Shown here: one piece after another, positions 7,540-27,852 of the stretch
How the letters are laid out: every line of letters starts with the position of its first letter
Numbering within the stretch: position 1 is the first letter of the stretch
From: an uncultured Pirellulales bacterium
Lineage (GTDB): Bacteria; Planctomycetota; Phycisphaerae; Sedimentisphaerales; Anaerobacaceae
Length of the DNA stretch: 58,605 bases
Direction: 5' to 3'
Assembly (NCBI GenBank): GCA_964597535.1
Contig: CAZQYB010000001.1
Coordinates: forward strand, 1-58,605
Notes under the pieces: generated by a model
Told to the model about the DNA's origin: nothing
Databases searched by the model: none
Seen by the model: the letters and a program-made list of their open reading frames with translations, nothing else
Position numbers and translations under genes: made by a program

Positions 7540-7840
7540 TTTTCTATCTCCTAAAAAGAGATTTTATCAAAAACACTAAAACACAAACGGCTTTACGCAT
7601 TTCAAATTAGCACCCGTCTCACTAATTGTCAACTTTTTTATTTTTTCAAAGATGGGCAGCAGGGCACATCGAGTTTGCCGGCAAAACAGCCCTTCGATAG
7701 CTGGTATGGGCAGTTTTATAAAAAGTGGCCGAAATTCGGATTTTTTGTAAACGAAATCTGATTTGGAGTCTCTATAATTACGAATATGTGCCCCGTTGCA
7801 CATCCGAGTTGTGTATAACTCAAGGGCTTTGCAAGACAAA

Positions 7841-8341
7841 ATGGTGCAGAAGATAAGTTTTAAGGCGTTGCTCAACGATTACAGTGCGGCGGTCCTGAAC
7901 ACTGCGATACGGGTTCTGGGCGACGGTCAAAAAGCCCAGGATGTCCATCAGGAAGTGTTTCTGGCAATATGGCGGCGATGGCACAAGTATAACGGCAACA
8001 CAAAATGGGGCGCATATCTGTACCGAACAACCGTCCGAAAGGCAATTGAGTTTGCCAAACGCTCAAGAGCCGAGCGGCTTATAGAGCGGCAGCCGGGAAA
8101 TCCGACTGCGAACGAAAAGCCGGATGGGCGGTTAAGAACTGCCGAACTTCAACAGAAACTCGTCAACTGCCTTGGACGATTGCCAAAACGTCAGGCGGAC
8201 GTGTTCGTGTTATCGAGAATCGAAGGATTAAAACATAACAAGATTGCCGAGGTCCTGGGCTGTTCGCAGGAAACCGTGAGAGTGCATCTTCATCGGGCGA
8301 CGAAGCGATTGACGCAGGAACTCAGCGAATATTTGGGGTGA
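7841..8341 (+). CDS. ECF-type RNA polymerase sigma factor (sigma-70 regions 2 and 4 only)
   Basis: Region 2 is DVHQEVFLAIWRRW. Region 4 HTH is LPKRQADVFVLSRIEGLKHNKIAEVLGCSQETVRVHLHRATKRL. The track ORF begins at TTG 7796; ATG 7841 gives a typical ECF length of about 166 aa. The stop lies 3 nt before the anti-sigma start. Confidence 0.88.
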   Translation: MVQKISFKALLNDYSAAVLNTAIRVLGDGQKAQDVHQEVFLAIWRRWHKYNGNTKWGAYLYRTTVRKAIEFAKRSRAERLIERQPGNPTANEKPDGRLRTAELQQKLVNCLGRLPKRQADVFVLSRIEGLKHNKIAEVLGCSQETVRVHLHRATKRLTQELSEYLG

Positions 8342-8344
8342 GAT

Positions 8345-11300
8345 GTGAATACACATGAAAAAATAAAGGAATTGCTAATCGGCTTTGTTCTTGGCGAACT
8401 CTCCGAACAAGAAGAAAGAAAAGTTAAAACGCACGTCGCTGAGTGTGCCGAATGCAGCAGCGAGCTAAAACGCCTTCGAGCATTACTTGAATGTACCGAC
8501 GAAATGAGGGAATTGTCGGCTGATAATCATTTGTGCCAGTCAGCCAAAGAAACGCTCCTTGCAAGTATAGGCAGCGAGGAGAAGCAACTAGCGCCGAGCT
8601 CGAATATCAGCGCCGGCTGCGTAAGGAGAACAATTATGCAAAGCAGAATAATAAAACTTGCCGCCGCAGCAGTGATAATCATAGCAGTTTGTATTGGGCT
8701 AAAAATGTTTATTCACCCATCGGAGAAGCAGCATGTAGGGGAAACAAGCATTGTAAATGAAGTGGAAACTACGGCCGAAGTGCTCGAAGCTGAACGAAAC
8801 ACGGTCAGACAAATGTTTGCTGCTCGCGACGTTCGCGGTTTGGAGGCGATGCTGCTAAATGCTCAATTTGATGAGAGCAAAGTCCTGGCGGCAAATTATC
8901 TCGCCTTGATTGGCGATTCAGATAGCGTTGAGGTTCTGCAGCAGGTCGATGAAGAGTACGGCGGCACCGAGCCCGCATTTGCAGAAGCGATAGCAGCTAT
9001 TGAAACCAGAATCGCAGATGCCGGCACGGAGGACTCGGAAGGCACGGAAGCCCCGGAAGGCACTTCCGCCCTTGATGGAAACGATACGGCCGTTGCCGAG
9101 GGCAGTGGTCCGGCGGTTGAGCAGGCGCCCGATGAATTGCTTCAATTAGTGCCGGCCAAGAGTATGTTCTGTGTGCGTGTGAACAATTTTGACTACGTTT
9201 TGGGAATGATAGACCAGTATTTGGCCGGCATTTCGCCGATGCCCGCCGGCGCAACAATGTTCGCGCGTATGCAGCTCGTAAGTGCGCTGGGCGACCCGGC
9301 ACTGAATGGCGTCAACACAGCAGGTAGTTTCGCTCTATTCGGGCTGGCGTCACCACCCGAGCCGAACGAAAATCCGTTGGGCAATCTGTTTATAGCGGGG
9401 CTCGTGCCTGTTACCGATTATGCGAAGTTCGTCAGCGATAATCCGAATTGCGAACAGCCCGATGCTAACGGCATCTCCATAATCAAAACCGGCGGCGCTG
9501 TCAACCCGAATAAAAAAATGCTCGCTGCGAAATTAGGCGGCTATGTCCTTCTCAGTTCGGCGAACAATTACGGCAAGCTGGTTTCGATTGCAAAATCGGT
9601 TTCTCAGGGTGTCTCCGGACTTGGCGATTCACTTGATGCTGGCGAGGTCGCAGCGGCAACCAATCAGCCGCTTTGGGCGTACGGTAACGTTCAGCGGGCT
9701 GCGAAAGTATTTGGACCTATGGTTTATGCCCAGCTTGAGCAGATGAAAAAGCAGTTTGAAACTATGAATGCCAGCCCCCAGGGCGGACCCGCACCGGCAG
9801 CAGCAATGAATATGTATTTCGGTATGTTCAATATTCTGACCGAAGAGGTTGAGTTTCTCAGTATCAGTGTCAACCCTAAAGTTGATGTTCTCAATTTGAC
9901 CATAAGTGCTGCAGCGGTGCCAAATACGCTGATGGCCAAGATGTTTGTGGCCGATGCCTCGGACGCAGCCAATACGCTCTTGAATTACCTAAAAGACGGG
10001 GCAATTCTTAATCTTGGATTCAAAATGAACACGCCTTTTATGGAAGAGTTAAGCATGACCGAGTACGACTTTATTGCTTTTCTTAGTGACCAGAATATTC
10101 CTGATGAGACTATCGATAAATTTGAAAACATGGTGGCCGATATGGTATCCTGCGCAGCGGGACCTGGAATAGCCTCTTTTACCTATAACAGCGAAGGATG
10201 GCCGCCTTTCGCAGGTAAGTACATCGTTGCGGTCAAAGACGAGGAAAAATGGAAGCAATTAATTAAAGCAGGGGCCGACCTTTACAATACCGGAGAATTT
10301 GCCGACCTCCATAACAAGATGGGGATCGAGTACAGGTATGAAATTAAGACTGGAGCGGACGACTGCAATGGTGTTTCAATTGATGTTGGCAAACTCGTAA
10401 TGGAACCGAACGACCCTAATTCTATGTATGGCAAGATAATAGACCAAACATACCGTGGTGGATTTGACTTCAGATACGCTATAGTCAATGGCCTCTGGCT
10501 CTGCGTGTTCGGCACGGACTGCAACTCGGCTATGTGCGAGTTGATTGATGAGGTCAAAGCCGGTGGGCCGAAAGAATTGGCATCTGAGATGGCCACGGCC
10601 CTGGAGGCTCTCACCAAAGCAGACAAGGCTGAGTTTGCAGGTACCGTGAATTTCATCCGCTACCTGAATATGGGTGCAAGTATGATGCAAGGTATAGAAA
10701 TAGAAGTTGGTGTAGATGCAGGGCAAATAGGCCCACCAATAGTGCCGGTTGACGTTGAGACCAATAGCAACATAGCGTTTGCCGGCAAGGTAACTAATGG
10801 CAAGATAGCCGTTGAGATTGCCCTGCCTAAACAGCATATATTGGAGATTAAAGCGGGCATTGAGACAATGGGGCAGCAGATGACAGTGATTATGGCGCGT
10901 CAAGAGGCCATCTCGCAGATACCTTCGACCGGCCCTATTATCGGTGAACCTCAGCCCGGTATGCCAACTCTTTACACGGTTGCCCCGGATGTGAACTTGT
11001 CCGATGAGCAAACCCTAATAGAAGGACTGCGTACGTTCGCTGAGATTTCAAACGGACGATATCCAAGCAACCTGAATTTGATGATAACAATGAGAGAAGC
11101 CGGTGAAGCCCTTAGAAAAAGCATCCTTGATGACCAAAACAGAGACCCCAATGTGACGCTGCCAACAAGAGAAGAGCTAATGGCTAAGTTGGCCAATATT
11201 GAAGCAGCTTGTCTGTTCTACGATAAATTGGTCAAGGAAGGCAAGGACGTTGTTTACCGTGGCGATAAGGTCACAACCGAATTTCCGCACGTGATCCTGA

Positions 11301-12361
11301 TGCAGTGGGAAATATCTGAAGACCGGCACAGGGTAATCTTTGCAGATTTAACTATCGAAGACGCTACCGCTCAAAGGCTGGCTGAACTTGAGGCCATGCC
11401 TCTCAATCTTGCGCCAAACGCGATCAAGCCTCAGCCGGCAGATGGAGGAGTCGCAAGCTCAGTTAGCAAACTGGAACTAAGCTGGATGCAGGGATTGAAT
11501 GCAGCCGAGCACAGAGTATATTTCGGCACCAACATTGATGAGTTATCACTTTTGGGCGAGGTCACAAGCCCCAGTTTCGACGAGCTCCCCGAACTCCAAA
11601 CCGACACAACCTATTACTGGCGTGTTGACGAAGTTCAGGCAGATGGTTCAGTTGTAGTCGGCGACGTTTGGAGTTTCAACACAAACAGAATAATGTGCCT
11701 CTGGTGGAAGTTTGATGAGACCAGCGGCAGCATCGTCAGTGATTCTTCCGGCAACGGCTATCACGGCGCAGGGGTGAGGAAAGTCCCAATCTGGGACCCC
11801 GACGGCAGGTTCGGTGGCTGTATCAACTTCGATGAAACGTATGGTGTGTCAATTCCGGGTGATGTCTTTGGCAACCATATCGACAGCGAAATAACCATTT
11901 CGGCCTGGGTCAATGGTGACGCGAACCAGATGAATCACAGTAACGTAATCCTCCAGGCTGGCAGTGGACCCTATGGAAGGCCGTATATCGTCAGCGTGTA
12001 CACGGAGTGGCAAGATGATGGTCGCGTCGAGTTCAAAACAGGACGCGACGAACCAGATGAAGTCAGCTATAATGCCGCCCTTGAGGAATGGGCGGGACAG
12101 TGGAATCACTATGCCTTTGTCAAAAATGCTAATGAAGGCTTCCAGAAGATATACCTTAATGGTGAATTGGTAGCTGAGAAGACCGGCACCAACGCATCGA
12201 TGGCCGGGGTGGGCACTGCCAGAATCGGTATAGCTCCTGACCGATACGGCGACCAATACATAGGCAAGCTCGACGACGTGCGCATATACAACTATGCCTT
12301 GTCCCAGGATGAGATAGGCCGGATTTACGAGGGTACTGACGCTGCTTCGGCGAAAAAATAA
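8345..12361 (+). CDS. giant anti-sigma factor: zf-HC2 N-terminus, one TM helix, ~1200-aa extracytoplasmic region ending in a YYWRVDEV module plus LamG domain
   Basis: The GTG start is 3 nt after the sigma stop. HVAECAECSSEL is the zf-HC2 anti-sigma motif. The TM helix is at about aa 103-122 (IIKLAAAAVIIIAVCIGLKMF). The C-terminus has EHRVYFGT...TTYYWRVDEV...GDVWSFNT, then a LamG-like block ending GKLDDVRIYNYALSQDEI. Confidence 0.8.
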   Translation: MNTHEKIKELLIGFVLGELSEQEERKVKTHVAECAECSSELKRLRALLECTDEMRELSADNHLCQSAKETLLASIGSEEKQLAPSSNISAGCVRRTIMQSRIIKLAAAAVIIIAVCIGLKMFIHPSEKQHVGETSIVNEVETTAEVLEAERNTVRQMFAARDVRGLEAMLLNAQFDESKVLAANYLALIGDSDSVEVLQQVDEEYGGTEPAFAEAIAAIETRIADAGTEDSEGTEAPEGTSALDGNDTAVAEGSGPAVEQAPDELLQLVPAKSMFCVRVNNFDYVLGMIDQYLAGISPMPAGATMFARMQLVSALGDPALNGVNTAGSFALFGLASPPEPNENPLGNLFIAGLVPVTDYAKFVSDNPNCEQPDANGISIIKTGGAVNPNKKMLAAKLGGYVLLSSANNYGKLVSIAKSVSQGVSGLGDSLDAGEVAAATNQPLWAYGNVQRAAKVFGPMVYAQLEQMKKQFETMNASPQGGPAPAAAMNMYFGMFNILTEEVEFLSISVNPKVDVLNLTISAAAVPNTLMAKMFVADASDAANTLLNYLKDGAILNLGFKMNTPFMEELSMTEYDFIAFLSDQNIPDETIDKFENMVADMVSCAAGPGIASFTYNSEGWPPFAGKYIVAVKDEEKWKQLIKAGADLYNTGEFADLHNKMGIEYRYEIKTGADDCNGVSIDVGKLVMEPNDPNSMYGKIIDQTYRGGFDFRYAIVNGLWLCVFGTDCNSAMCELIDEVKAGGPKELASEMATALEALTKADKAEFAGTVNFIRYLNMGASMMQGIEIEVGVDAGQIGPPIVPVDVETNSNIAFAGKVTNGKIAVEIALPKQHILEIKAGIETMGQQMTVIMARQEAISQIPSTGPIIGEPQPGMPTLYTVAPDVNLSDEQTLIEGLRTFAEISNGRYPSNLNLMITMREAGEALRKSILDDQNRDPNVTLPTREELMAKLANIEAACLFYDKLVKEGKDVVYRGDKVTTEFPHVILMQWEISEDRHRVIFADLTIEDATAQRLAELEAMPLNLAPNAIKPQPADGGVASSVSKLELSWMQGLNAAEHRVYFGTNIDELSLLGEVTSPSFDELPELQTDTTYYWRVDEVQADGSVVVGDVWSFNTNRIMCLWWKFDETSGSIVSDSSGNGYHGAGVRKVPIWDPDGRFGGCINFDETYGVSIPGDVFGNHIDSEITISAWVNGDANQMNHSNVILQAGSGPYGRPYIVSVYTEWQDDGRVEFKTGRDEPDEVSYNAALEEWAGQWNHYAFVKNANEGFQKIYLNGELVAEKTGTNASMAGVGTARIGIAPDRYGDQYIGKLDDVRIYNYALSQDEIGRIYEGTDAASAKK

Positions 12362-12420
12362 TCTTCCGCAGGCTTTAACAAAACAGCTTGATTGTCTTAT
12401 CAGTCTTCTGTTGCAAATAG

Positions 12421-12449
12421 GCCGGGCATGTATTGCTCGGCTTTTTTTT
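12421..12449 (+). terminator. intrinsic terminator after the anti-sigma gene
   Basis: The hairpin is GCCGGGCA-TGTAT-TGCTCGGC (one mismatch), followed by T8. Confidence 0.6.
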
Positions 12450-12454
12450 ACACT

Positions 12455-13639
12455 TTAATTTTGTAATTTAGCAAGCTCGTCATTGCACATCTTCAATTGG
12501 CCGGGGTCAGAGAGCTTTTTGACCGCCACCTGCAGGTGCTTTAACGCCAGCTCTCGCTGGTCAAGATACCGCGAATACAATAAACCCACCATCAGCTCGA
12601 CCTGCTCAATATATTCATAGTTGCTGTAGTGAGCCAGAAACTTTTCGTAAGCTTCTGCCGATTCAGCGTGTTTACTCTCACTGGCAAGCTGATTGGCAAT
12701 ATCCAGCAGATATTGGCGCGGCAGAATCTGCTTGCTATCGAGGTCGGCAAGCTCCAAATATAGTTGGGCTGCGGCCGGTAAATTGCGTTCGTCAATCCAA
12801 CGGGAAATCTCGTTGCGAAGCTGCCTGACTTTTTCCTCTTGCTGTTTTTCACCCGGTGTTTTTCTTATTTCTTTTACTTTTATCTGTTTTGTCACTGTCC
12901 GGCCGGCAAATGGGTCGTAACCATTCGAGACAGCATCGCGATAACACCGCCGCCGATTCCATCGTTTTATCATTGCCCACAGGTCGAAACTGCTGCCTGC
13001 AATCAGGCCGGTCGCCAGCATACCTAACACAGCCAGAATGCCGAAGGCATAACCGGACAGGTGTGCATCATAAGCGACATTGGGAATGTGTCTTAAGTAC
13101 ATATTGTCCCAAAAAATCAACTTGAAACCGATGAAATACAAGGCGGGGATTTCAAAGGTACCAATAAAAAAGAGCAGCCAGTAAAAAACCGTAATCAAGG
13201 TCTGGGGAAACAAGACAAAATATGCTCCGGTTACGGCAGCAACGGCGCCGCTTGCTCCCAGAGTGGGTATAGGTGAAGACAAATGGAGGACTGTATGACC
13301 TATACCGCTGAATGCGGCACCGGCCAAATAAAGGCACAGATACCCAATGTTGCCGAGTTTGTCGTTGACATTGCGGCCAAAGACATACAAAAAGAACATA
13401 TTGCCTAAAATATGCCAGAAGTCTCCGTGCAAAAACGCGTAACTTACAAGCTGCCACAGACGAAGTTCATTAGGGGTAAGCATAAAGCGCGCAACCCACG
13501 GTCGAAATACCAGACCACCTTGGGGGGCTACATGTAATTCCAGTAAAAAAATAATCGCATTGACAATTATCAGGGCGTAATTTGCGTATGGCGTCCGCCA
13601 CGGCCGAATACTTGTCCGAATGGGCAATACAAAAAACAT
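12455..13639 (-). CDS. rhomboid family intramembrane serine protease with a C-terminal soluble helical (TPR-like) extension
   Basis: Rhomboid motifs are WHILGNMFFLY, the catalytic-Ser block GASGAVAAVTGAY and the catalytic-His block AHLSGYAFG. About 150 aa of charged, helical, non-membrane sequence follow. Confidence 0.85.
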   Translation of the reverse strand: MFFVLPIRTSIRPWRTPYANYALIIVNAIIFLLELHVAPQGGLVFRPWVARFMLTPNELRLWQLVSYAFLHGDFWHILGNMFFLYVFGRNVNDKLGNIGYLCLYLAGAAFSGIGHTVLHLSSPIPTLGASGAVAAVTGAYFVLFPQTLITVFYWLLFFIGTFEIPALYFIGFKLIFWDNMYLRHIPNVAYDAHLSGYAFGILAVLGMLATGLIAGSSFDLWAMIKRWNRRRCYRDAVSNGYDPFAGRTVTKQIKVKEIRKTPGEKQQEEKVRQLRNEISRWIDERNLPAAAQLYLELADLDSKQILPRQYLLDIANQLASESKHAESAEAYEKFLAHYSNYEYIEQVELMVGLLYSRYLDQRELALKHLQVAVKKLSDPGQLKMCNDELAKLQN

Positions 13640-13720
13640 AATTTAGCTGCCAGTTTAATTATAAGATTGAGCTAAAAACCCTGCCCATTGTATCGGAGAA
13701 AAACGACAGCGACAAGACAT

Positions 13721-13859
13721 AAAAAAAAGGACGGCAATCGCCGTCCTGTCCGGTAAAATCAGTCATTACAAGCTGTTTCCCTCCCTCGCGGAAAGCATCA
13801 TGAGCTGGTACGATTCCTCACAACAACCAGCTTCCCTCCCAGCCGAAGTCTAATCTGCT
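13721..13859 (-). ncRNA. candidate small RNA, GGA-motif rich (possible CsrA-binding Rsm/Csr-like RNA)
   Basis: The minus-strand sequence is ...GACTTCGGCTGGGAGGGAAGCTGGTTGTTGTGAGGAATCGTACCAGCTCATGATGCTTTCCGCGAGGGAGGGAAACAGCTTGTAATGACTGATTTTACCGGACAGGACGGCGATTGCCGTCCTTTTTTTT. A sigma-70-like promoter lies upstream. It ends in a 7-bp GC stem (13729..13746) plus T8. Seven GGA triplets are present, and two of the GGA groups sit in hairpin loops. There is no ORF. The 5' end is only estimated. Confidence 0.4.
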
Positions 13860-13865
13860 AATAAA

Positions 13866-13894
13866 AATATAAGATACAAACGCCACAAAGCCAA
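13866..13894 (-). promoter_or_regulatory. sigma-70-like promoter for the candidate sRNA
   Basis: The minus strand reads TTGGCT - 17 nt - TATATT. Confidence 0.35.
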
Positions 13895-13992
13895 ATGCCG
13901 GACCAAAAAAAACTTTATTTTTTGCTCAGGTGATGTTAATCAATTGTATTTGGCAGTGGGCGAAACGCTAACTAAACCGTGAGCTTGAGTAA

Positions 13993-15108: not shown

Positions 15109-15198
15109 CTCAATAAGAGCAAAAGGATTATCTTTTACATAAGCGCACTTTTAAAATAGATGCGGTATAAATTGTTTTTCAGGGACAATTAACTACGT

Positions 15199-15238: not shown

Positions 15239-15306
15239 CCACGCGAAATTTTATAAAGACAGCTTTGCCGAGTTGATGATTTTGCTGCTGCTCTACCTGC
15301 TCCTGC

Positions 15307-17440: not shown

Positions 17441-17470
17441 TTGACGAGGGGGCAGCTAATTTGGTATAAG
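17441..17470 (+). promoter_or_regulatory. sigma-70-like extended -10 promoter inside the leader repeat; identical copy at 22667..22696
   Basis: The sequence is TTGACG - 18 nt (ending TGG) - TATAAG. It would give a 5' UTR of about 325 nt. Confidence 0.35.
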
Positions 17471-17801
17471 GGTATAAGTAAGACTGGTTAAGGATACCGA
17501 TTCTTAGGTGCCAGTTTGTGCAGTTTTTGCCGTTTATGGGCGAAAATTGAGTAAAAAGGTACAGACTTTAGTGAGACCCTTGTGGCTCGGAAGTGGGAGT
17601 TTTGTGCCTCGAAGACGGTTTTTTTTGGATTTTCGTACACATCTGGGCTTGCCGTCTAAACTTGAGTGGGATGACAGACGAACCATCAAAGGTTGTCAGG
17701 GACAGGCGTCAAATATGTGGATGCCTGTTGAAAATAACGGATGTTTTGGCGTTTAGCCGAAAAACGTAGTCATAGTTTAATTTTTGAAAAGGAGGAACGT
17801 T

Positions 17802-20800
17802 ATGTGTAGGAAATTAACAGTCTTGATTTTTGTCGTCTTTATGCTGGGGCTGGTTAGCAATGCTCCAGCGGCTGAGTACCCTGGGAAGTATATGGAATTG
17901 AAAGTGGACTTCGGTTACTCGGATGACCCATCTACTTGGAAACCAGGCTGGCTTCCGTGGGCTTCATGGAACGACGAGGACAGGCATGACGCGAAACTGT
18001 TCGCCAATATTGGCGGTTCGACCATTGATGCGTGCATCAGTGTCGGTCACGAAGGAGACCTGGCCCTGGGGCAGGACTTAGAAGATAATGTTGAGGATGA
18101 GCCTATGTGCAATAGCTTTATGCACTATTATAGGACCCCCATTTGGTACTATGAAGACGGGAAAGCCCCGGGTCATTCCGGTGGCGATATTCTCCTGTTT
18201 CTGACCAGAGAAGGTGGGCTGGAGCCCGGCGAATACTGGCTCTATAGCTACCACAGGCATCCGGCTGACATGAACGACATTCAGAAGATAGAGGTCACGT
18301 GTAGTAAGGATGGACGCTGGCCCAAGGTGGCAGGTCAGTATGCCGAGTACGGGCAGGAGCCGATTGGTGAAGAGTGGCTCACAGGCGATATCAATTGCCC
18401 CAATTATCCCGGCGATCCCTGCGGCGGTGTTTTCCAAATCCACGACGAGGACACTTTTGACATAAACGTACCCATTGAGGGGGACCCTAACAACAATGGG
18501 GACCCTTGCCACGATGCTGACCTTACGCCATCGTTGGTGAAGTTTTACACCGATGGCAGACCCGTTCTCATCAGATATTGGGCGCCGGACGATGGGTCTT
18601 GCGCAGTGCTCAACGCTTTCCGCCTTCTCGGTCCTATACCCAGGGCTGCCTGGGGGCCTTTGCCGCGAAATGGGGCCGAAGATGTTTGCCCGGATGCTAA
18701 TCTCACCTGGCATTCAGGAGAGTACGTAGCATATGACACAGATGCGAATGGCCATGATGTGTACTTCGGCACGGATTTGCGGAATGAGTTTGTCTTGTTG
18801 GATGACGGTTTTGAAGGCGGCATTGATGCAAACTGGACGGCATCCAACTGGTCGCAATACGACGCAAATGGTGATGGGAACTCCCACTCCGGCAGATACT
18901 CGGCCACTCCGGGAAGCGGTGCCGGAACTTTGACCTCTATAGCTTTAGATGCCAGTTATGCACGCTCACTTGAAATAGAATTGTGGCTTCATAAATCTGA
19001 AGAGATAGGGGCTGGAGATATTGACCTGTACTATTCTGACGGAAATAACTGGGACTTTATAGCCGACTTGAATTCTATCGGCCCAAATGATGTGTGGCTG
19101 CATTACACCGACGAGGTAACGGACAGCCAGTATATGGTAAGCACTTTCAAGCTGGAGCTGCGGAGCGACATAAGCAGTGGCGAGGTATTTGTTGACGATG
19201 TTTTGGTGGTCAACACGTGGCCGGTCGGCGACCAGTGGTTCATAGACAATCGAGACCCATGTAACTACGACCCACCCGGTCTTATGGATTTTAACACCAC
19301 TTACTACTGGCGGATTGACGAGGTCAATAATGCTAATCCCAACAGTCCGTGGAGAGGCGGCACCTGGAGCTTTACGACCGAAGACGGAAAAGCTTCTGAG
19401 CCCAGTCCGGCTGACGGCGCCTGGAGTGTGCCGACGACGGACGCGAGCCTTAGCTGGACTGCGTCCTGCCTGGCAATCAAGCACGATGTCTACTTCAGCA
19501 CGAATTTCGCTGATGTCAACACGGGCAGCGACCCCAACTCCGGGGCCGGCCAGGGCCGTCAGACAGAGACCATGTTTGACGACCTACCGATTCTGGAGCC
19601 ATTCACGCGCTATTACTGGCGTGTCGATGAGAAAGGTGCAACTACTTTCGTCAAGGGAGACGTCTGGACGTTCGTAACGGTCGGCGGTGTTTTGATGCAC
19701 TACAAATTCGATGGTGTTGAAGATGCTAACATTGGGGACGCCGGCGACGCAAATCTTGTCACAGACTCTACCGGCAACGTCACGTTCAGGAAGCGGGGTG
19801 ACTATACGTCTCTGACGTACGGGCTGAGTAATCCACTTATCAATCCAGGTGGAACGTCCGCCCACTTCCATCAGTGGGAGGAAGACATTCCCGACGAGGA
19901 TGACATCCAGCACCGAGTAGGCCTGCTTAGAGATGCCGAGGGGCCTGATATTCTCGACCTGGCCGGCGAGGCATACACCATCGAGATGTGGGTCAGGCAG
20001 GATTCGTTTTATTCCGAGAGTGTGGGAGATGATGACTATGCTGCGACGTTGTTCAGGAAATATAACAGGAGTTATGTCCTTGCTATAGGCGAAGACAATA
20101 TAGTTCGCTACGGGCATAGCGGCAGCATAATAACATCGGCGCCGGATGCCAACTATCCCGTAGAGATAGAGCTGGAAAGGTGGTATCACATTGCCGCAGT
20201 CTTTGATTCTACCGACCCCTGTGAGTCGCAAAGGCTCTATATTAACGGCGAACAAGTCAGCGACGGTAATACCTCGTCTCCAAATCCCCTTAATGATGAC
20301 GACTATGTCGGAATCGGGTTTACGAAACAGCCACAGCGGGTTGGCCCCGGGCTTGAACAAAACTTTTTCAACGGTCTGATTGACGAACTGCGGGTGACCG
20401 ATGTGGCTCTTAAACCGAACCAATTCCTGATACGCGGCGGCCCGGGACAGGCCTGGTTCCCCATACCCCAAGACTATTCCAGGGACATCCAGTTTAATGT
20501 GGACCTTAGCTGGAGGCCGGGAGACTATACGGTTGATGTTAATGGGCACGATGTGTACATCGGCACCGACTGGTACGAAGTCAACGAAGCCAACGCCACG
20601 GCCCACCCGAACGTGGGCTACGCCAATCTGGATGTCAACAGCTACGACATCCCGTACTATCTTAGTTTGGACCAGATCTATTATTGGCGTGTGGACCAGG
20701 TCAATGATGTCTGCGAGCCCTACCTGTGGAAAGGCGCTATCTGGCGTTTTACTGTGCCAGAATACATCATCATCGACGATATGGAGGACTACACGCTGAG

Positions 20801-22319
20801 CTATACGGATTATCCAATAAGCGATGATGAAGAGCCATATGGATGGGAGAGCTCCCTGAACGGTTCCAGTTACGGGGGGTCATACCTTAGCCTTGTGACA
20901 CCTACGAATTTTAGTTGGATACCATCTCACGGCGGCGTGCAGACAATGGCGCACGTATATTTTAACGGTGACTACTACTATTCTGAGATTGCAAACCACT
21001 TTGTCCTTGACCCGTGTGATTGGACTTACGGCGGCATAAAGATGTTATCGCTGTGGTTCTATGGCGCGGTGACGAATGACCCTGACGGTCAGACCCAGCA
21101 GATGTATGTGGGGCTGGAAGATGCCGACAGCAATTATGCAGAGGTCAGGTATGGCGACAACGAAGGTGAAGATATGGATAATGTGAAAATTGAGGAATAT
21201 CACCAGTGGAATATGCCGCTAAGTTGGTTTACCACGGCGAATCCCGACTTAGACCTGGACCGTATGAAGAAGCTTTATATCGGCTTTGGTGACAGAACCA
21301 ACACTACGGAGTATGGCAGTGAGGGTGTCGTATATTTCGACGATATCCGGCTGTATCCGCCGACGTGTATTCTTTCGAAAAGAACGTCTCAGTTCGCTGT
21401 ACTCGATTTGGACGACGATTGTATCATTAGCTTCGGCGACGTTGAGCTAATGGCAGAGGATTGGCTCAAGCACGATGTCAATCTTGGCGAAGTAAGCGAG
21501 CCCTGCGATGCCAACCTTGTCGGCTGGTGGAATTTCGATGAGGATGAGGATGATGGCGACGGGAATGTGGTTACCGATTCCAGCGACTACGGCAATGACG
21601 GGACGATAGAGACCAACGATGTTAACGTATGGTGGGTTGCCGGCCACCCTAACGATGTGAACTACGCTCTTGATTTCGACGGCGGCAGGGTCCTGGTGCC
21701 GGATGCAGCAGAGTTGAGGCCGATGCATCAGGTCAGCGTGTGCGCATGGATATACTATTCCGATGAGCAGAGCAGCGGCCGCATAGTGGTCAAAGGTGCA
21801 GATAACAAGGAAACGTACAGCCTCGAAGTCGGCAGTAACGACGAGCTGGTGTTCCTGGTGCGTGACGGCAATGACCCTAATGCCGAAGACTATCCAAAGT
21901 ACGATGCAGAAAGCGGCGAAGATGCTCTCGACCGTGATGGATGGGTTCACGTAGCCGGTACGTACGACGGCAATACGGTAAAGTGCTACATAAATGGTGA
22001 ACTTGCTGCCGAGAGCAACGACCCAAATACAAGTGCGATACCCCTCCTCTCCCAGGACACTAATGATTTGGCGATAGGCAACCAGTCGGATGCTATGGAC
22101 AAGCCGTTTAAAGGTATCATAGACGACGTTCGCGTTTACAACTATGGTCTGTCAGCGGCGGAGGTCGCGTACATTGCCAGCGGTCCCACCGGAATATTCC
22201 TGATGGACTCGTTCGCCAATCTGTCCGACGAGGAGGAAAAGGGTCACAGAGCGGTCAACTTGAGGGACTTTGCTAAACTCTCGGATGCCTGGCTTGAAGA
22301 GGAGTTGTATCCTGAGTAA
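17802..22319 (+). CDS. giant secreted multidomain protein (about 1505 aa): three HDVYFGT/YYWRxDEV modules, two LamG domains, jelly-roll-like domains, dockerin/EF-hand-like segments
   Basis: The ATG at 17802 is preceded by AAAGGAGGA; the track start at 17784 is a TTG inside the SD region. The signal peptide is MCRKLTVLIFVVFMLGLVSNAPA. LamG ends are LIDELRVTDVAL and IIDDVRVYNYGLSAAEV. The Ca-loop-like segment is DLDDDCIISFGDVELMAEDWL. Confidence 0.85.
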   Translation: MCRKLTVLIFVVFMLGLVSNAPAAEYPGKYMELKVDFGYSDDPSTWKPGWLPWASWNDEDRHDAKLFANIGGSTIDACISVGHEGDLALGQDLEDNVEDEPMCNSFMHYYRTPIWYYEDGKAPGHSGGDILLFLTREGGLEPGEYWLYSYHRHPADMNDIQKIEVTCSKDGRWPKVAGQYAEYGQEPIGEEWLTGDINCPNYPGDPCGGVFQIHDEDTFDINVPIEGDPNNNGDPCHDADLTPSLVKFYTDGRPVLIRYWAPDDGSCAVLNAFRLLGPIPRAAWGPLPRNGAEDVCPDANLTWHSGEYVAYDTDANGHDVYFGTDLRNEFVLLDDGFEGGIDANWTASNWSQYDANGDGNSHSGRYSATPGSGAGTLTSIALDASYARSLEIELWLHKSEEIGAGDIDLYYSDGNNWDFIADLNSIGPNDVWLHYTDEVTDSQYMVSTFKLELRSDISSGEVFVDDVLVVNTWPVGDQWFIDNRDPCNYDPPGLMDFNTTYYWRIDEVNNANPNSPWRGGTWSFTTEDGKASEPSPADGAWSVPTTDASLSWTASCLAIKHDVYFSTNFADVNTGSDPNSGAGQGRQTETMFDDLPILEPFTRYYWRVDEKGATTFVKGDVWTFVTVGGVLMHYKFDGVEDANIGDAGDANLVTDSTGNVTFRKRGDYTSLTYGLSNPLINPGGTSAHFHQWEEDIPDEDDIQHRVGLLRDAEGPDILDLAGEAYTIEMWVRQDSFYSESVGDDDYAATLFRKYNRSYVLAIGEDNIVRYGHSGSIITSAPDANYPVEIELERWYHIAAVFDSTDPCESQRLYINGEQVSDGNTSSPNPLNDDDYVGIGFTKQPQRVGPGLEQNFFNGLIDELRVTDVALKPNQFLIRGGPGQAWFPIPQDYSRDIQFNVDLSWRPGDYTVDVNGHDVYIGTDWYEVNEANATAHPNVGYANLDVNSYDIPYYLSLDQIYYWRVDQVNDVCEPYLWKGAIWRFTVPEYIIIDDMEDYTLSYTDYPISDDEEPYGWESSLNGSSYGGSYLSLVTPTNFSWIPSHGGVQTMAHVYFNGDYYYSEIANHFVLDPCDWTYGGIKMLSLWFYGAVTNDPDGQTQQMYVGLEDADSNYAEVRYGDNEGEDMDNVKIEEYHQWNMPLSWFTTANPDLDLDRMKKLYIGFGDRTNTTEYGSEGVVYFDDIRLYPPTCILSKRTSQFAVLDLDDDCIISFGDVELMAEDWLKHDVNLGEVSEPCDANLVGWWNFDEDEDDGDGNVVTDSSDYGNDGTIETNDVNVWWVAGHPNDVNYALDFDGGRVLVPDAAELRPMHQVSVCAWIYYSDEQSSGRIVVKGADNKETYSLEVGSNDELVFLVRDGNDPNAEDYPKYDAESGEDALDRDGWVHVAGTYDGNTVKCYINGELAAESNDPNTSAIPLLSQDTNDLAIGNQSDAMDKPFKGIIDDVRVYNYGLSAAEVAYIASGPTGIFLMDSFANLSDEEEKGHRAVNLRDFAKLSDAWLEEELYPE

Positions 22320-22346
22320 TCAGGTTGTTGTAACTTCGAAGAAGTT

Positions 22347-22386
22347 CGGGGTCTATACCGATTCGGTATGGGCCCCGCTTTTTTTT
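22347..22386 (+). terminator. intrinsic terminator of giant gene 1
   Basis: The hairpin CGGGGTCTATACCG-ATTC-GGTATGGGCCCCG is followed by a T-run. Confidence 0.8.
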
Positions 22387-22522
22387 ACATTATTTCGTGC
22401 GTGACGGGTATTGCGGCTGGAGCGCTCAAAAATCATAATTGGGGCAAAGATATCGCTTGCGGGCTACAACTTGCGTTTTTGAATTGATTATAGTACTTTG
22501 GGAGCAGGGTATAATAGTTACA

Positions 22523-23000
22523 CCGGATTTCTTTTGGGAAAGCAAGCTTTTCCGGGACAATGTGGAGAATGGGGTGCATGTTATGCTTGACAGGACACTA
22601 CAGGTTGCCTATTTTAAACGCTGGGAAAATTTATCGCACCCCGTCCGATAATTTAGTGTTTTCTTCTTGACGAGGGGGCAGCTAATTTGGTATAAGGGTA
22701 TAAGTAAGACTGGTTAAGGATACCGATTCTTAGGTGCCAGTTTGTGCAGTTTTTGCCGTTTATGGGCGAAAATTGAGTAAAAAGGTACAGACTTTAGTGA
22801 GACCCTTGTGGCTCGGAAGTGGGAGTTTTGTGCCTCGGAGTAGGTTTTTTTCTGAATTTTCTTACACACCCGGGCTTGTTGCCTAAACTTGAGTGGGATG
22901 ACAGGCGTCAAATATGTGGATGCCTGTTGAAAATAACGGATGTTTTGGCGTTTAGCCGAAAAACGTAGTCATAGTTTAATTTTTGAAAAGGAGGAATGTT
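22523..23000 (+). repeat. leader repeat, copy 2, upstream of giant LamG gene 2
   Basis: See copy 1. The offset is +5226 for the 315-nt identical block. This copy lacks the 28-nt segment present at about 17678..17705. Confidence 0.95.
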
Positions 23001-26000
23001 ATGTGTAGAAAACTAATTCTGCTGGTTTGTGTTGTTGCAGTCCTGGGTACGGTGGACTTTGCCTACGGTCATACTCGCTGGAATGGCACCGACAGCAATG
23101 ATTTTTGCGACCCGTGTAACTGGAACAATCCTGTATTCAAGGGGGACGAGCTGGCAATGGTTATCGATAAGAGCCCCTGGCGTGACCCTAACAGTGGCGA
23201 TTACACTCCTAACGCTCCCTATTTGTTCCGTTACGCAGACCCCAACGTTTTTTTACCAGGAGATTTTCTGAGAGGGCCGGGATACGATGCAGGCACCCGC
23301 GCTGATTGGTTTATTCGCCCTGGGGGATGGTTCCATTGCGCCAGTGCGTGGCGGATGTGCTACAATGCGAACACGACGGGCTACACGGAGATGACGGGGG
23401 GAACACTTATTTTCGATGGGGTGATTCGGTGCCCACACCACGCGGACGCGAACGCAGCAATAGTGCTTCTCCACGGCGGGACTATTACAGCCCCCAGTAT
23501 CAGCTTCGGACCACAAGGCCTATTTGACTTTGCCGGCGATGGTACGCTTATCCTTGACAGCTATCCTGGTATAATCGCTGATGTCGAAGGTTGGGTAGCT
23601 GCCGAGAATATAACCGCCTATGACGGTGCGGGCACGGTGGTCTATGACTGCAATGTGACGAATCCCGGCAAGACCACGATAACCAGTGAGTTTGGTCACG
23701 CGGCCGCCTGGAACCCAAGCCCTGAATACCTGGCTGAAGATGTGTGTCCGGATGTGAACCTTGGCTGGACGGAAGGAGATAGCGCCGATACGCATACTAT
23801 CTACTTCGGCCCAAGCCCGAATGACGTAAATGTAAGCACCGCTGACCCCTGCGAAGAAGGCTACGACAGCAACAGTTGGAAGCCGCCCGCCCTTGAATTG
23901 GGCAAAACTTACTATTGGCGGATTGTTGAGGTCAACGACGGCAACGAGTGGGTCGGGTCGGTGTGGCAATTTACGGTTGAGACCGGAAAAGCTCGCGACC
24001 CGAGCCCGGGCGACGATATGAAAGGTGTACCTGTAGATGCGAACCTAAGCTGGACGGCATCGTGCCTTGCAGATTCGCACGATATGTACTTCGGCGCCAG
24101 TTGGGCTGATGTAAATAGCGGCGGCGGCGACACGTCTAAAGGCGGTCAGAGCTCACCCTACGACCCGGGCCCGCTTGACGCAGGCACCTGGTACTATTGG
24201 CGGGTGGATGAGGTTGGCGATACGACAATCAAAGGCGACGTCTGGAGCTTCAAGACCCAGGTGGGGGTCTTGCTTTACTACTCGTTTGACGGCAGCGAAG
24301 GTACAGACCTGCCGAGCGAGATTACGTACGCTCCCACAAACATCACGTTTACAAAGTATATTGACCCGAACTATCCTGACCCCTGTGGTATTGAGGACCC
24401 TAACGGTTCGGTGAAGTATAGCGAGCCAAATCCGCTTATCTATACGGATAAGACGTCCGCTGATTTCGAGCCTTTTGCGGGTCTGTATCGACTTGATACC
24501 GGCGACGGCGATATTCTGCGCCTGGACTACCCGCAATACACCATCGAGATGTGGATTTACGTCAACAGCGGCGATTACGATAGCAAGAATATGATGGTGA
24601 TTGGCAAGGGTGAGGGTATGAGCGATGACAGAGAACCCTGGTCGCTTATGCTAAGTGACCTTGGTTCTGACGACGACCTCCGCTGGTACCATAACGGCGA
24701 CAGGACAGAGAATGACGTTATGGATGATAACCTGGATGAATGGATTCACGTTGCCGCAGTTTTTGACCAGAGTCTCCCCACGGCCAACCGGAAGTTGTAT
24801 CTTAACGGTGAAGTAATTGCGGATGATACTGACCACGACACCAATCCTGCTGATAATAATGACCCTGTCGGGATTGGCTGTCAGAGGGATGCCGACGGTA
24901 CATTTGATGATGGTATGTTCTTCGACGGTAGAATTGACGAGCTTCGGATTTTGGATGTGGCGCTTCAGCCAATCCAGTTCCTGTATCCGCGGGCTGCTGA
25001 CCCCAGTCCGGAGGACGGCGAGGGAGACATCGACCCGAACGACCCGAATGACCCGAATGTAGTCCTTAGCTGGACACCATGGGCGGGCGCAAATCAGCAC
25101 GATGTGTACTTCGGCACCAATTACGTGAACGTAAGGGACGGCAATAATCCCAACGTGTACATTGGCCGAGTGGATTCTAACAGCTATATTATCAGCGACG
25201 TGTGTGACCTTGAATACGCTACGACCTATTATTGGCGTATTGACGAGGTCAACGGCAGTGACGCTTATACGGGCGTTGTCTGGCAATTTTTAACCAAGTA
25301 TCAAATCGTTGACCCGAATCTTCTGCTTTGGTACCCGTACGATGAGATGGAAGGCGACTGGGTTTATGACCATTCCGGCCACGGTCTTCACGGCCAGAAC
25401 GGCGACGTCAGCGACGGCTGGGACCCTGATGGGCGGTTCGATGGCTGCCTGGAATTTGATGATAACATGGGTTTTGACCTTGAGAAGCGAACGCTTAGCA
25501 ACATTAACAAGGAAATAACCATAGCCGTTTGGCTGGATGGCTACCGAGAGGAGGATGACAACTGGGTTATTAACGCGGGCGCCGATGGCAACTTCGTAGA
25601 GGTAATAGTTCCTGACCCGGAGGACGACTACGTGTACTGGCGTGCAGGCAACGACTCCAATGACCTGCTGATATGGAATGATGCCACTCCGAGCGACTGG
25701 GTAGGTGACTGGCACCACTTTGCGTTTGTCAAGAATGAGAATGCAGGTACGATGAGCATATACTTCGACGGCGAGGTGGCGAAGTCAAAGTCCGGCACTA
25801 TCAGTTCGCTCTCCAATATCGCGAATACGGATTTCAGTGTCGGCGCGAAGTTAGGTAACTCCGCAGACTACGTAGGTAAGATGGATGACTTGAGGGTGTA
25901 TGACTATGCCCTGTCAAAGAAAGAGATAGCGGGGCTGTTCAGGGGGGGCGACATCGAGCTTGCCTGGGGTCCGAGCCCCTATGATGGCCAGCCGGACGCC

Positions 26001-27788
26001 CGCATGAATGCAGACCTTAGCTGGAAACCGGGAGACTATGCGGATTTGCACGATGTGTACTTCGGCACCGATTTCGACGAGGTCAGCGATGCCAACACTT
26101 CGAACATCGCCGGCTATCCCGACGTCAACTACGCCAGGGTCGATGTAAATAGCTATGACCTCGATACCCTTGATTTAGGCGAGACCTACTACTGGCGTGT
26201 CGATGAGTTTAATGACCCATGCACCTGGAGAGGCAAGGTCTGGCGATTTAAGGTCGCTGAGTTTATTGTTATTGACAATATGGAAGATTACACGGTCATC
26301 GGCGGTGACTACCCAATAGCCGGTTTTGCAGAACCCCGTGGCTGGGATTGTGGGTATAATAACGACACCAGCTCAGCGCTTGGCCTTGTTTACCCCGGCT
26401 CTATATACACCGTAGCGGCACACCGGAGCGACCAGGCGATGAACTATTATTACGGCAACGATGATAATAGCGGCCTGGGCTATTATTCCGAGATTTCAAA
26501 CCATTTCACTATGGACCCGAATGACTGGACTTCCGCCGGCGTCAAGATGCTAACATTATGGTTCTATGGAACCGCTGGTAATGATGCTAATGAACAGGTG
26601 TACGTGGGCCTGGAAGACATCAGTGGCATCGGCAGTTATTCACAGGTTGACTACGGTGACGAAGGCGAAGATATGAATGATATAAAGCTTGCGGAGTGGC
26701 AGGAGTGGAATATCCCGCTAAATAAATTCACCACCGCCAATCCCGGCTTAGACCTGACCTGTATAAAGAAGCTGTATATCGGCTTTGGCGAAAGAGGTGC
26801 TTCGGAGGCCGGCGGGATAGGCTACATGTATTTCGATGATATCCGGCTGTATCAGCCCACTTGCGTTCCCTCGATGAGAAAACCTGACTACGACTTGAAC
26901 GACGACTGCATTGTTGACTTCGGGGACATTCAGGTAATGGCAGAGGACTGGCTCAAGAGCGATGTCAATCTTGGCGAAGTAACAAAACCATCAGACGCTA
27001 ATCTCGTCGGCTGGTGGATGCTCGATGAGGGCAGCGGTGGTATCACTTACGATTCCAGCGGCAACGACAATGACGGTGTGATAGAGACGATAGAGACCAA
27101 CGTGGAGTGGGTTACCGGGCACAACGACGTGAACTACGCTCTGGACTTTGCCGGCGGCAGGGTCCTGGTGTCGGATGACGGGGACACACCAGAGCTGAAC
27201 TCGATGAGCCAGTTGACCGTATCCGCGTGGGTCAATTACTCCCAAACACAAGAGCAGAGTTCCCGCATAGTTGTCAAAGGTGCAGACAACGCGGAAAAAT
27301 TCAGTTTCGAGATTAATAATGATGACGAGTTCGTGTTCCTTATACGTGACGCTAATAAGCCCAAAGACCACAAGTATGATGTGAACGGCATTGATAAGCT
27401 CGAGCACGATGAATGGATTCATTTAGCCGGGACGTACGACGGCAACAATGTACTGAGCTGCTATGTGAACGGCGAACTCAGGGATCGCGCCGAGGACGTA
27501 AATCTTATAGAAGGTCTTTGCCGAGACCCCAACTATGGTCTGGCAATAGGTAACCGGTCGGACGCCACGAGCCGTGCTTTTACAGGTACCATAGACGACG
27601 TTCGTGTTTACAACTCTGCACTGTCTCCGGAGGAAATTGCATACATTACGACGGACAGCACGGGCATCATGGCACTGGAATCGGTTGCCGATATCTACAA
27701 GGAGGCGCGCGGAAAAGGAGTAATCAACCTCAAAGACTTTGCGGTGTTGGCGGACACCTGGCTCGAAGAGAAGCTGTATCCTGAGTAA
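23001..27788 (+). CDS. giant secreted multidomain protein (about 1595 aa), paralogue of 17802..22319 with a different N-terminal third
   Basis: It has the same SD and ATG context. The signal peptide is MCRKLILLVCVVAVLGTVDFAYG. There are four HD[VM]YFG/YYWR[IV][VD]E modules and three LamG-like blocks ending RIDELRILDVAL, KMDDLRVYDYALSKKEI and TIDDVRVYNSALSPEEI. The Ca-loop-like segment is DLNDDCIVDFGDIQVMAEDWL. The C-terminal ~600 aa are colinear with gene 1. Confidence 0.85.
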   Translation: MCRKLILLVCVVAVLGTVDFAYGHTRWNGTDSNDFCDPCNWNNPVFKGDELAMVIDKSPWRDPNSGDYTPNAPYLFRYADPNVFLPGDFLRGPGYDAGTRADWFIRPGGWFHCASAWRMCYNANTTGYTEMTGGTLIFDGVIRCPHHADANAAIVLLHGGTITAPSISFGPQGLFDFAGDGTLILDSYPGIIADVEGWVAAENITAYDGAGTVVYDCNVTNPGKTTITSEFGHAAAWNPSPEYLAEDVCPDVNLGWTEGDSADTHTIYFGPSPNDVNVSTADPCEEGYDSNSWKPPALELGKTYYWRIVEVNDGNEWVGSVWQFTVETGKARDPSPGDDMKGVPVDANLSWTASCLADSHDMYFGASWADVNSGGGDTSKGGQSSPYDPGPLDAGTWYYWRVDEVGDTTIKGDVWSFKTQVGVLLYYSFDGSEGTDLPSEITYAPTNITFTKYIDPNYPDPCGIEDPNGSVKYSEPNPLIYTDKTSADFEPFAGLYRLDTGDGDILRLDYPQYTIEMWIYVNSGDYDSKNMMVIGKGEGMSDDREPWSLMLSDLGSDDDLRWYHNGDRTENDVMDDNLDEWIHVAAVFDQSLPTANRKLYLNGEVIADDTDHDTNPADNNDPVGIGCQRDADGTFDDGMFFDGRIDELRILDVALQPIQFLYPRAADPSPEDGEGDIDPNDPNDPNVVLSWTPWAGANQHDVYFGTNYVNVRDGNNPNVYIGRVDSNSYIISDVCDLEYATTYYWRIDEVNGSDAYTGVVWQFLTKYQIVDPNLLLWYPYDEMEGDWVYDHSGHGLHGQNGDVSDGWDPDGRFDGCLEFDDNMGFDLEKRTLSNINKEITIAVWLDGYREEDDNWVINAGADGNFVEVIVPDPEDDYVYWRAGNDSNDLLIWNDATPSDWVGDWHHFAFVKNENAGTMSIYFDGEVAKSKSGTISSLSNIANTDFSVGAKLGNSADYVGKMDDLRVYDYALSKKEIAGLFRGGDIELAWGPSPYDGQPDARMNADLSWKPGDYADLHDVYFGTDFDEVSDANTSNIAGYPDVNYARVDVNSYDLDTLDLGETYYWRVDEFNDPCTWRGKVWRFKVAEFIVIDNMEDYTVIGGDYPIAGFAEPRGWDCGYNNDTSSALGLVYPGSIYTVAAHRSDQAMNYYYGNDDNSGLGYYSEISNHFTMDPNDWTSAGVKMLTLWFYGTAGNDANEQVYVGLEDISGIGSYSQVDYGDEGEDMNDIKLAEWQEWNIPLNKFTTANPGLDLTCIKKLYIGFGERGASEAGGIGYMYFDDIRLYQPTCVPSMRKPDYDLNDDCIVDFGDIQVMAEDWLKSDVNLGEVTKPSDANLVGWWMLDEGSGGITYDSSGNDNDGVIETIETNVEWVTGHNDVNYALDFAGGRVLVSDDGDTPELNSMSQLTVSAWVNYSQTQEQSSRIVVKGADNAEKFSFEINNDDEFVFLIRDANKPKDHKYDVNGIDKLEHDEWIHLAGTYDGNNVLSCYVNGELRDRAEDVNLIEGLCRDPNYGLAIGNRSDATSRAFTGTIDDVRVYNSALSPEEIAYITTDSTGIMALESVADIYKEARGKGVINLKDFAVLADTWLEEKLYPE

Positions 27789-27815
27789 TCAGGTTGTTGT
27801 AACTTCGAAGAAGTT

Positions 27816-27852
27816 CGGGGTCTATACATTTGGTATAGGCCCCGCTTTTTTT
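27816..27852 (+). terminator. intrinsic terminator of giant gene 2
   Basis: The hairpin CGGGGTCTATAC-ATT-TGGTATAGGCCCCG is followed by T7. Confidence 0.8.

Follow-up and report, generated by a model that had tools for sequence, protein, structure and literature searches.

The window analysed here is a 58,605-nt stretch (positions 1 to 58,605 of contig CAZQYB010000001.1, assembly GCA_964597535.1) from an uncultured Pirellulales bacterium that the GTDB places in the Sedimentisphaerales, class Phycisphaerae. It carries a gene for an extracytoplasmic function (ECF) sigma factor, directly followed by the gene of a 1338-aa anti-sigma factor that ends in a LamG domain, and further to the right two genes for giant secreted proteins, G1 and G2, in which domains of the same types recur. 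A first-pass annotation of this DNA, made from the sequence alone, had proposed that the anti-sigma factor senses the ligand that the giants bind, and that the genes form a self-contained circuit. The first 17 kb of the window are 99.84% identical to two marine-sediment contigs of the Joint Genome Institute (JGI), the sequencing runs containing window sequence are marine-sediment metagenomes, and the records of relatives are labelled as metagenome-assembled genomes of Planctomycetota, Phycisphaerae or Sedimentisphaerales.

The sigma factor gene (7841..8341, plus strand) encodes 166 aa, and its likely start, the ATG at 7841, agrees with the JGI gene call. The protein matches Sigma70_r2 (E = 1.5e-12) and Sigma70_r4_2 (E = 1.1e-16), lacks region 3, and scores 102.7 bits against the ECF superfamily model TIGR02937, for which the cut-off is 42.9. 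Its small size, its composition of regions 2 and 4 only, and its passing of this curated model make it an ECF sigma factor (sigma-70 group 4). The classification succeeds at the level of the superfamily but not below it, as every NCBIfam ECF subgroup model scores under its cut-off on this protein. The stop codon (TGA, 8339-8341) is separated by a 3-nt gap from the GTG at 8345 that begins the anti-sigma open reading frame. Upstream of the pair lies a candidate promoter of the operon, TGTAAAC-N16-TCTCTATAAT (7746..7778, plus strand), which is found once in the window and has conserved counterparts at the orthologous loci L001 and L004.

The anti-sigma factor (8345..12361, plus strand) begins with an anti-sigma domain (ASD, aa 1-95) that bears the zinc motif H30-x3-C34-x2-C37 and scores 27.6 bits against zf-HC2 (PF13490; Pfam threshold 22.2). 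An N-terminal HxxxCxxC domain encoded 3 nt after a sigma gene places it in class I of the zinc-binding anti-sigma (ZAS, zf-HC2) domains. Exactly one hydrophobic segment, a transmembrane (TM) helix at aa ~100-122, leads to HEAT repeats (aa 126-225), the one part (aa ~126-225) for which a profile search of PDB sequences with the anti-sigma factor returned matches, all of them HEAT/alphaRep structures. An acidic linker connects these repeats to a central alpha/beta domain of ~600 aa (aa 263-860; 9131..10924, plus strand), which is followed by a helical linker domain (aa 861-1030), an FN3-like module with the YYWRVDEV motif (aa 1031-1125) and a Laminin_G_3 domain (aa 1127-1329). A low-threshold Pfam scan of the linker and central domains gave nothing significant. 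The last two domains constitute a cassette (11435..12331, plus strand) that is supported by Pfam (PF13385, 78.9 bits, E = 5.8e-22), by an AlphaFold2 (AF2) model with a mean confidence (pLDDT) of 90.4, and by Foldseek, whose best match for the LamG half is the carbohydrate-binding domain 4 of the arabinanase AbnA (5hon_A). The FN3-like half is modelled as all-beta and weakly matches Pur_ac_phosph_N. The Laminin_G_3 model is passed by the anti-sigma factor, G1 and G2 alike, and the AF2 model of the anti-sigma domain resembles LamG/ConA-like structures.

Most of what the first-pass annotation had read from the letters of this gene pair is borne out, namely the 3-nt spacing, the ECF identity of the sigma factor, and a ZAS-type partner with zf-HC2 domain and single TM helix. 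The profile searches that it had recommended (zf-HC2, Sigma70_r2/r4 and Laminin_G_3 models) all produced matches. It had also placed the module and LamG block after the one TM helix; the block is indeed C-terminal, but it does not directly succeed the helix, from which it is separated by ~900 aa.

The anti-sigma ectodomain is a mosaic of HEAT repeats, an orphan domain of ~600 aa, a helical linker, and a distal cassette of FN3-like module and LamG. Its segments match different sets of proteins, with the ASD and TM helix, the HEAT repeats, the central domain and the cassette each having a set of its own; the ASD and TM helix resemble those of anti-sigma factors with other ectodomains, and the HEAT part resembles yet others. 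The central domain has no match in Pfam or among PDB sequences and is modelled by AF2 at a pLDDT of 78. Its sole fold match, to the Treponema lipoprotein TP0453, is weak (E = 1.3e-3), and we assign no function to the domain. The same domain occurs as a stand-alone secreted protein of ~750 aa, and as an orphan family it is represented at ~70 GTDB species loci of Phycisphaerae/Sedimentisphaerales (L016-L084), mostly as the domain alone (about 60 species) and without a conserved neighbourhood. At one of these loci (L055) its gene follows an ECF sigma factor and a VIT-VWA protein and lies 2 kb from a LamG protein. It is also part of anti-sigma factors that have no cassette, such as the 845-aa partner of the sigma factor at L016 and, likewise, P0013.

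Three proteins (P0004, P0008 and P0009) share the ectodomain, but their ASDs are only 11-26% identical to that of the window's anti-sigma factor, so that their sigma partners differ. Because other ectodomain relatives carry unrelated ASDs, the true orthologues are limited to two, those of species B (L001, 76% identity) and species C (L004/L015, 69%), where the window represents species A. The best-conserved region between A and B is LamG, at 91% versus 76% for the whole protein, with the complete cassette at 89-91%; the central domain is conserved at 78-80% among the three species. In the searchable literature we found no description of LamG-tipped anti-sigma factors of this architecture in Planctomycetes/Sedimentisphaerales.

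The giants G1 (1505 aa; 17802..22319) and G2 (1595 aa; 23001..27788), both on the plus strand, are tandem paralogues with 41% amino acid identity, and their coding DNA is only 70-79% identical. The most likely starts are the ATG codons at 17802 and 23001, each preceded by a AAGGAGGA ribosome-binding site, and both proteins open with MCRKL and a Sec-type signal peptide, in keeping with the gene positions and secretion given earlier. Each giant has a variable N-domain and, after the last module, a domain resembling carbohydrate-binding modules (CBMs). G1 contains three FN3-like modules and two LamG domains, and G2 four and three (Laminin_G_3 totals of 168 and 228 bits). The statement that a module pair occurs three to four times in each giant is overstated: a module directly abutting LamG, the arrangement of the anti-sigma factor, is found only once in G1 and twice in G2. 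One of the G2 pairs is an extra cassette (25029..25943, plus strand; module aa 677-782, LamG aa 784-981) that is absent from G1 and from the giant of species C. An insert of ~150 aa (18774-19250, G1 aa ~325-480) without a Pfam match interrupts the first of the three FN3-like modules in G1. Low-threshold Pfam searches of this insert, the N-domains and the CBM-like domain gave nothing significant, and a PDB sequence search with G2 gave no match. Both giants carry DxDxDxxIxxxD-like motifs that we call dockerin-like only, as Dockerin_1 (PF00404) does not match them even at E<=1.

The similarity between the anti-sigma factor and the giants is real. Residues 1011-1332 of the anti-sigma factor align collinearly with G2 residues 649-984 at 34% identity over 349 aa (BLASTP, 179 bits, E=7e-49), by far the best giant match to the anti-sigma cassette, and the extra cassette itself is 34-37.5% identical. 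Against the anti-sigma LamG, the remaining four of the giants' five LamG domains reach 19-29% identity, and the FN3-like modules of the giants are 28-40% identical to its module. Judged from these alignments, the homology is far beyond chance, yet it is similarity at the level of the family. Among the matches listed, small secreted proteins of ~500 aa composed of F5/8C, module and LamG are 52-58% identical over the anti-sigma cassette, and 55-64% over LamG. The searches with ~320-aa queries listed only proteins shorter than ~560 aa, so that they demonstrate the existence of closer relatives and do not rank the anti-sigma factor against the giants. The extra cassette of G2 also has closer relatives elsewhere (P0149 at 59%, again among the matches listed).

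A neighbour-joining tree of LamG domains (100 bootstraps) gives a similar picture. One group (100% bootstrap) unites the anti-sigma LamG and its orthologues with the small F5/8C-FN3-LamG proteins. The second LamG of G2, that of the extra cassette, lies in a separate group with other proteins (89%), and it is never a direct sister of the anti-sigma LamG (0%). The other giant LamG domains form two orthologous trios from G1, G2 and the species-C giant (100% and 94%) elsewhere in the tree.

How widespread the cassette is became evident when 1.84 billion cluster representatives were scanned exhaustively: 40,035 of them match at E<=1e-3, with 11,655 still matching at E<=1e-10 and 1,572 at E<=1e-30. 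Proteins of 1,000-3,000 aa with many copies are frequent among these, and the 150 matches listed all exceed 202 bits, versus the 179 BLASTP bits to G2. The anti-sigma factor and the giants have the cassette type in common because such building blocks are ubiquitous in this lineage, where shared LamG cassettes alone are no evidence of a circuit. The proposal of a common ligand does not fare well against these data: the anti-sigma LamG sides with the small F5/8C proteins and is distant from four of the five LamG domains in the giants, and the species-C giant has no such cassette at all.

Two side observations concern the same building block. K-mers of the YYWR[IV]DE motif reach 14-44x the local genome depth in metagenomes, and in all metagenomes unitigs break at the DNA encoding it (19299-19330 and equivalent sites), where many different modules are joined; such sites will fragment or mis-join assemblies of giants of this kind. 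The small F5/8C-FN3-LamG genes (L008-L011) belong to a conserved operon with two uncharacterised proteins of ~390-490 aa and large CarboxypepD_reg/thioredoxin-like proteins, and some proteins of the latter type share the ASD or HEAT segments of the anti-sigma factor (P0024, P0026-P0028).

The giants have transcription signals of their own. A promoter before G1 (TTGACG 17441-17446, TATAAG 17465-17470) is followed by a leader of ~330 nt (the unit spans 17441..17801, plus strand), and the promoter and leader of G2 (22667..23000, plus strand) duplicate this unit, with the upstream stretches 17296-17606 and 22522-22832 (311 nt) being 100% identical. Each gene is closed by an intrinsic terminator on the plus strand, at 22347..22377 after G1 (a 14-bp stem and then a T-run) and at 27816..27844 after G2 (strong, and near-identical to the first). 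The same organisation extends through the family. Nine members with upstream sequence share TTGACG-N17/18-TATA(A/T)(A/G) with a strikingly conserved spacer, GGCAGCTAATTTGG, and leaders of 300-420 nt with conserved blocks (the loci cited being the window, L085, L086, L088-L092 and L095). The MC[RK]KL protein start is conserved across nine or more paralogous giant genes, and leader k-mers occur at 10-18x the depth of their flanks. A degenerate leader pattern retrieved 11 metagenome loci, eight of which encode proteins starting with MC[RK]KL or MYRK, and seven of these eight have recognisable modules and/or LamG; an exact 35-mer of the leader was found in neither the genome-contig nor the metagenome-contig collections. 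The identical 311-nt units, together with the family-wide promoter and leader, point to gene conversion and/or to shared operator or leader control.

No promoter element links the giants to the sigma factor. The block upstream of the sigma gene, which across species A, B and C reads TGTAAAC-N16-(T/C)CTCTATAAT, has its single window occurrence there, and none of the bipartite -35/-10-type elements conserved before the sigma gene in the three species recurs before the giants. Neither an ECF sigma factor nor an ASD is encoded within the 2-12 kb of flank available at five other leader-giant loci. These comparisons of promoters, leaders and flanks argue against direct control of the giants by the ECF sigma factor. 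Because the TTGACG/TATAAA promoter and the leader are family-wide and no element of the sigma block is shared, they argue instead for a family-wide programme that would depend on the housekeeping sigma factor, perhaps with a repressor or leader-based control. The self-contained circuit of the first-pass annotation is difficult to reconcile with giants that have a sigma-70-type promoter, leader and terminators of family-wide type, and whose relatives elsewhere lack an ECF pair.

Several further features of the leaders deserve mention. RNAalifold finds one conserved hairpin (TTTTTGCC-N6-GGCAAAAA) and one helix in the nine leaders, with an unfavourable net covariation term, and on that account we do not claim a conserved RNA element. 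Rfam searches of the whole window at gathering thresholds, and of the leader at E<=1, returned only tRNA and noise. The stretch that separates the sigma locus from the giants contains a CsrA gene (15307-15504, minus strand), and the giant leaders have GGA motifs (AACGGATG, AAGGAGGA) both at the ribosome-binding site and immediately upstream of it. Such motifs would suit CsrA binding, which is pure speculation on our part. The JGI contig Ga0309839_1000149 (L006), otherwise 99.8-100% identical to the window, lacks a segment of 199/200 nt before both giants (window 17269-17467 and 22494-22693; joints at 17278/17279 and 22304/22305 of L006), so that the conserved -35 element TTGACG is gone, as is part of the -10 element. 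The left junction is not the same in the two copies, and microhomology is absent. The junctions of the window are spanned by Logan contigs from runs X1-X3, and the deletion joint is present in none of eight runs (X1-X3 and X5-X9). The deletions could be a true variant that has lost its promoters, or else an artefact of assembly.

Species A, B and C retain a core of five genes: an SH3 protein (minus), the sigma factor (plus), the anti-sigma factor (plus), a rhomboid protease (minus) and an M24 peptidase (plus). In the window, the first is a secreted SH3b-domain protein (6379..7539, minus strand) divergent from the sigma gene, and the rhomboid gene (12455..13639, minus strand) is convergent with the anti-sigma gene and syntenic only in close relatives. 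As the first-pass annotation had observed for the window, a giant-family gene stands beside the pair, and this holds for both sister species. In B and C a leader-bearing giant is immediately left of the SH3 gene; the species-C giant (1457 aa) aligns with G1 along its entire length at 45% identity, and that of species B, with only its first 203 aa on the contig, has the N-terminus of a leader-bearing family member. In the window the left position is taken by GH32-dxr-RseP and the giants are on the right, past CsrA and two small open reading frames. With 10-18 giant-family copies per genome-equivalent, proximity within 6 kb would occur by chance in only a few per cent of cases (roughly 2-4% per locus), and for this reason the association is probably ancestral. 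No giants are found near the ectodomain relatives L002, L003 and L005.

The GH32, RseP and rhomboid genes cited earlier in favour of a dedicated system are all confirmed, but their relevance to it is not: GH32 is not a conserved neighbour and RseP is in the classic housekeeping dxr-rseP arrangement, so that both are incidental, and the adjacency of the rhomboid gene is uninformative. Other regulators and large genes of the window are a GAF-SpoIIE phosphatase (28479-29777), a sigma-70-family alternative sigma factor with regions 2, 3 and 4 (36186-36950), a PilM-like protein of 758 aa (39251-41527) followed by two open reading frames without a Pfam match, and a TPR protein of 1449 aa (45392-49741).

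Sediment metatranscriptomes (runs X21-X23; window positions 7500-27499) contain contigs 95-99% identical to pieces of the anti-sigma factor, CsrA, G1 and G2. A G2-like contig reaches a depth of 41 in one of the cDNA runs, roughly 10x that of the anti-sigma piece (3.4). These contigs show only that relatives of the anti-sigma factor and the giants are transcribed, and are silent on sigma dependence.

Single-pass ZAS (zf-HC2) anti-sigma factors that are removed by regulated intramembrane proteolysis are known from SigW/RsiW and from SigE/RseA with RseP. The pair described here resembles these systems in its two-domain sigma factor, adjoining anti-sigma gene, HxxxCxxC motif, single TM helix and encoded RseP homologue, and differs from them in an ectodomain that is a 1,210-aa mosaic of HEAT repeats, 600-aa orphan domain, FN3-like module and LamG. 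The features of such proteolysis that can be seen are the one TM segment and the RseP gene in its housekeeping context, and cleavage is only predicted. There is also a likeness to the FecI/FecR ECF systems in polysaccharide utilisation loci of Bacteroidota, where an ECF pair likewise stands beside glycan-related secreted proteins. Unlike those systems, the anti-sigma factor has no FecR domain by Pfam and there is no TonB-dependent transducer among the annotated neighbours, so that we do not regard the pair as FecR-type. AbnA, a GH43 arabinanase, provides the structural comparison for the second half of the cassette (domain 4 of 5hon; Foldseek E = 1e-10, TM-score of 0.76 normalised to the target), although sequence identity to the anti-sigma LamG is only about 20%. 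Carbohydrate-binding genes were in the neighbourhood of the original group ECF10, according to the ECF reclassification (PMC7826278).

A further precedent is RsgI/SigI of Acetivibrio (Clostridium) thermocellum. According to two reports, C-terminal CBMs of RsgI sense polysaccharides and control cellulosome genes, and RseP performs the last cleavage of RsgI (PMC10328401, PMC12203970). That system shares with the present one an anti-sigma factor anchored in the membrane whose distal module, of carbohydrate-binding type, is also found in secreted multi-domain proteins; here, RseP is only proposed as the protease. The differences are an ECF sigma factor in place of SigI, the lack of an RsgI-type Pfam domain, and the generic nature of the shared module. 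Pfam and NCBIfam call only ECF models on the sigma factor, and only zf-HC2, an anti-sigma model and Laminin_G_3 on the anti-sigma factor, which places the pair outside the RsgI/SigI family.

Taking these observations together, we lean towards the view that the locus encodes an ordinary ECF/ZAS anti-sigma sensor with an undescribed mosaic ectodomain, which came to stand by descent beside a family of giants under independent control. The giants, a tandem pair of paralogues, belong to a large family of Sec-secreted FN3/LamG proteins, and each has its own promoter, leader and terminator; that they lie near the sigma pair is most simply understood as inherited synteny rather than as evidence of a dedicated circuit. 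Under this ordinary-sensor reading, the ectodomain would receive an extracytoplasmic cue, probably a glycan or surface polymer bound by the LamG cassette, its best-conserved region. The anti-sigma factor would then be removed, probably by regulated proteolysis that ends with the housekeeping RseP, and the freed sigma factor would drive its own operon plus a further regulon. Three observations weigh against this reading. In each of the three closely related species the pair has a leader-giant within 1-5.5 kb, and the side on which it lies varies. The motif comparison has limited power, as the true promoter of this ECF sigma factor may differ from the candidate block. Finally, the groups containing the anti-sigma LamG and the second LamG of G2 fall inside one LamG superclade (97% bootstrap), of which the extra cassette is the sole giant part. 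The phylogeny that the first-pass annotation had called for, on the understanding that its link would fail if the anti-sigma LamG were no closer to the giants than to unrelated LamG domains, is accordingly divided: for four of the five giant domains that failure is essentially what we see, while the fifth half escapes it through the superclade, still without direct sisterhood.

The model first proposed would amount to an analogue of RsgI/SigI: the cassette would bind the polymer of the giants, the sigma factor would be freed, and the neighbouring giant genes would be switched on. In its favour, giant-family genes flank the pair in all three species, the G2 extra cassette is in the superclade of the anti-sigma domain, conservation within the anti-sigma factor is highest in LamG, and the principle is established in Acetivibrio thermocellus (PMC10328401, PMC12203970). 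Such sensing of a common ligand by a self-contained circuit is plausible in kind, but it is weakly supported, and we consider it rather unlikely. The sigma gene and the giants have no promoter element in common, the sigma-70-type promoter of the giants is conserved family-wide, the giant beside the species-C pair lacks an anti-sigma-type cassette, and the cassettes are only 34-37% identical, each with closer relatives elsewhere. Moreover, the three species are close (rhomboid and M24 proteins 74-84% identical, anti-sigma factors 69-76%), and one inversion of the five-gene core would shift a flanking giant across, and keep it adjacent, without selection for linkage. A more elaborate form of the idea, which we hold to be doubtful, would make the pair a planctomycetal counterpart of RsgI-SigI by analogy: the anti-sigma factor, through its FN3-LamG tip, would respond to a polymer of the sediment or to the giant itself and govern the giant or giants next to it, and the conserved spacer and 300-420-nt leader would serve as a second layer of control.

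Alternatively, the signal might be received by the ~600-aa central domain, with the FN3-LamG tip serving as an optional add-on for anchoring or for extending reach. What the family has in common is that domain, which stands alone in about 60 species, persists in anti-sigma factors without a cassette (L016, P0013) and is conserved at 78-80% among A, B and C; LamG is better conserved still (91% between A and B), however, and the central domain shows no recognisable binding or enzymatic fold, which leaves this an improbable choice. We give less credence again to the suggestion that the ectodomain monitors the giants or their surface layer through protein-protein contacts of FN3 and LamG and so reports secretion load or surface integrity. 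Such a role would fit the domain types that they share and their proximity, and the dockerin-like motifs of the giants hint at assembly, but Pfam calls no dockerin, no cohesin-like partner is seen, and no direct evidence points that way. The ordinary sensor beside independently controlled giants is the reading to which we return.

The narrower value of these findings is that they define a previously undescribed anti-sigma ectodomain architecture, an orphan domain family of ~600 aa, and a multigene family of giants that share promoter and leader. The Phycisphaerae-like planctomycetes of sediments have very many LamG/FN3 giants and many ECF systems, neither of which is understood. If the link between the sigma pair and the giants were nevertheless true, it would offer a first handle on how these bacteria choose which giant surface proteins to deploy, and it would extend to another phylum the logic of cellulosome regulation, wherein the sensor borrows the binding module of the effector.

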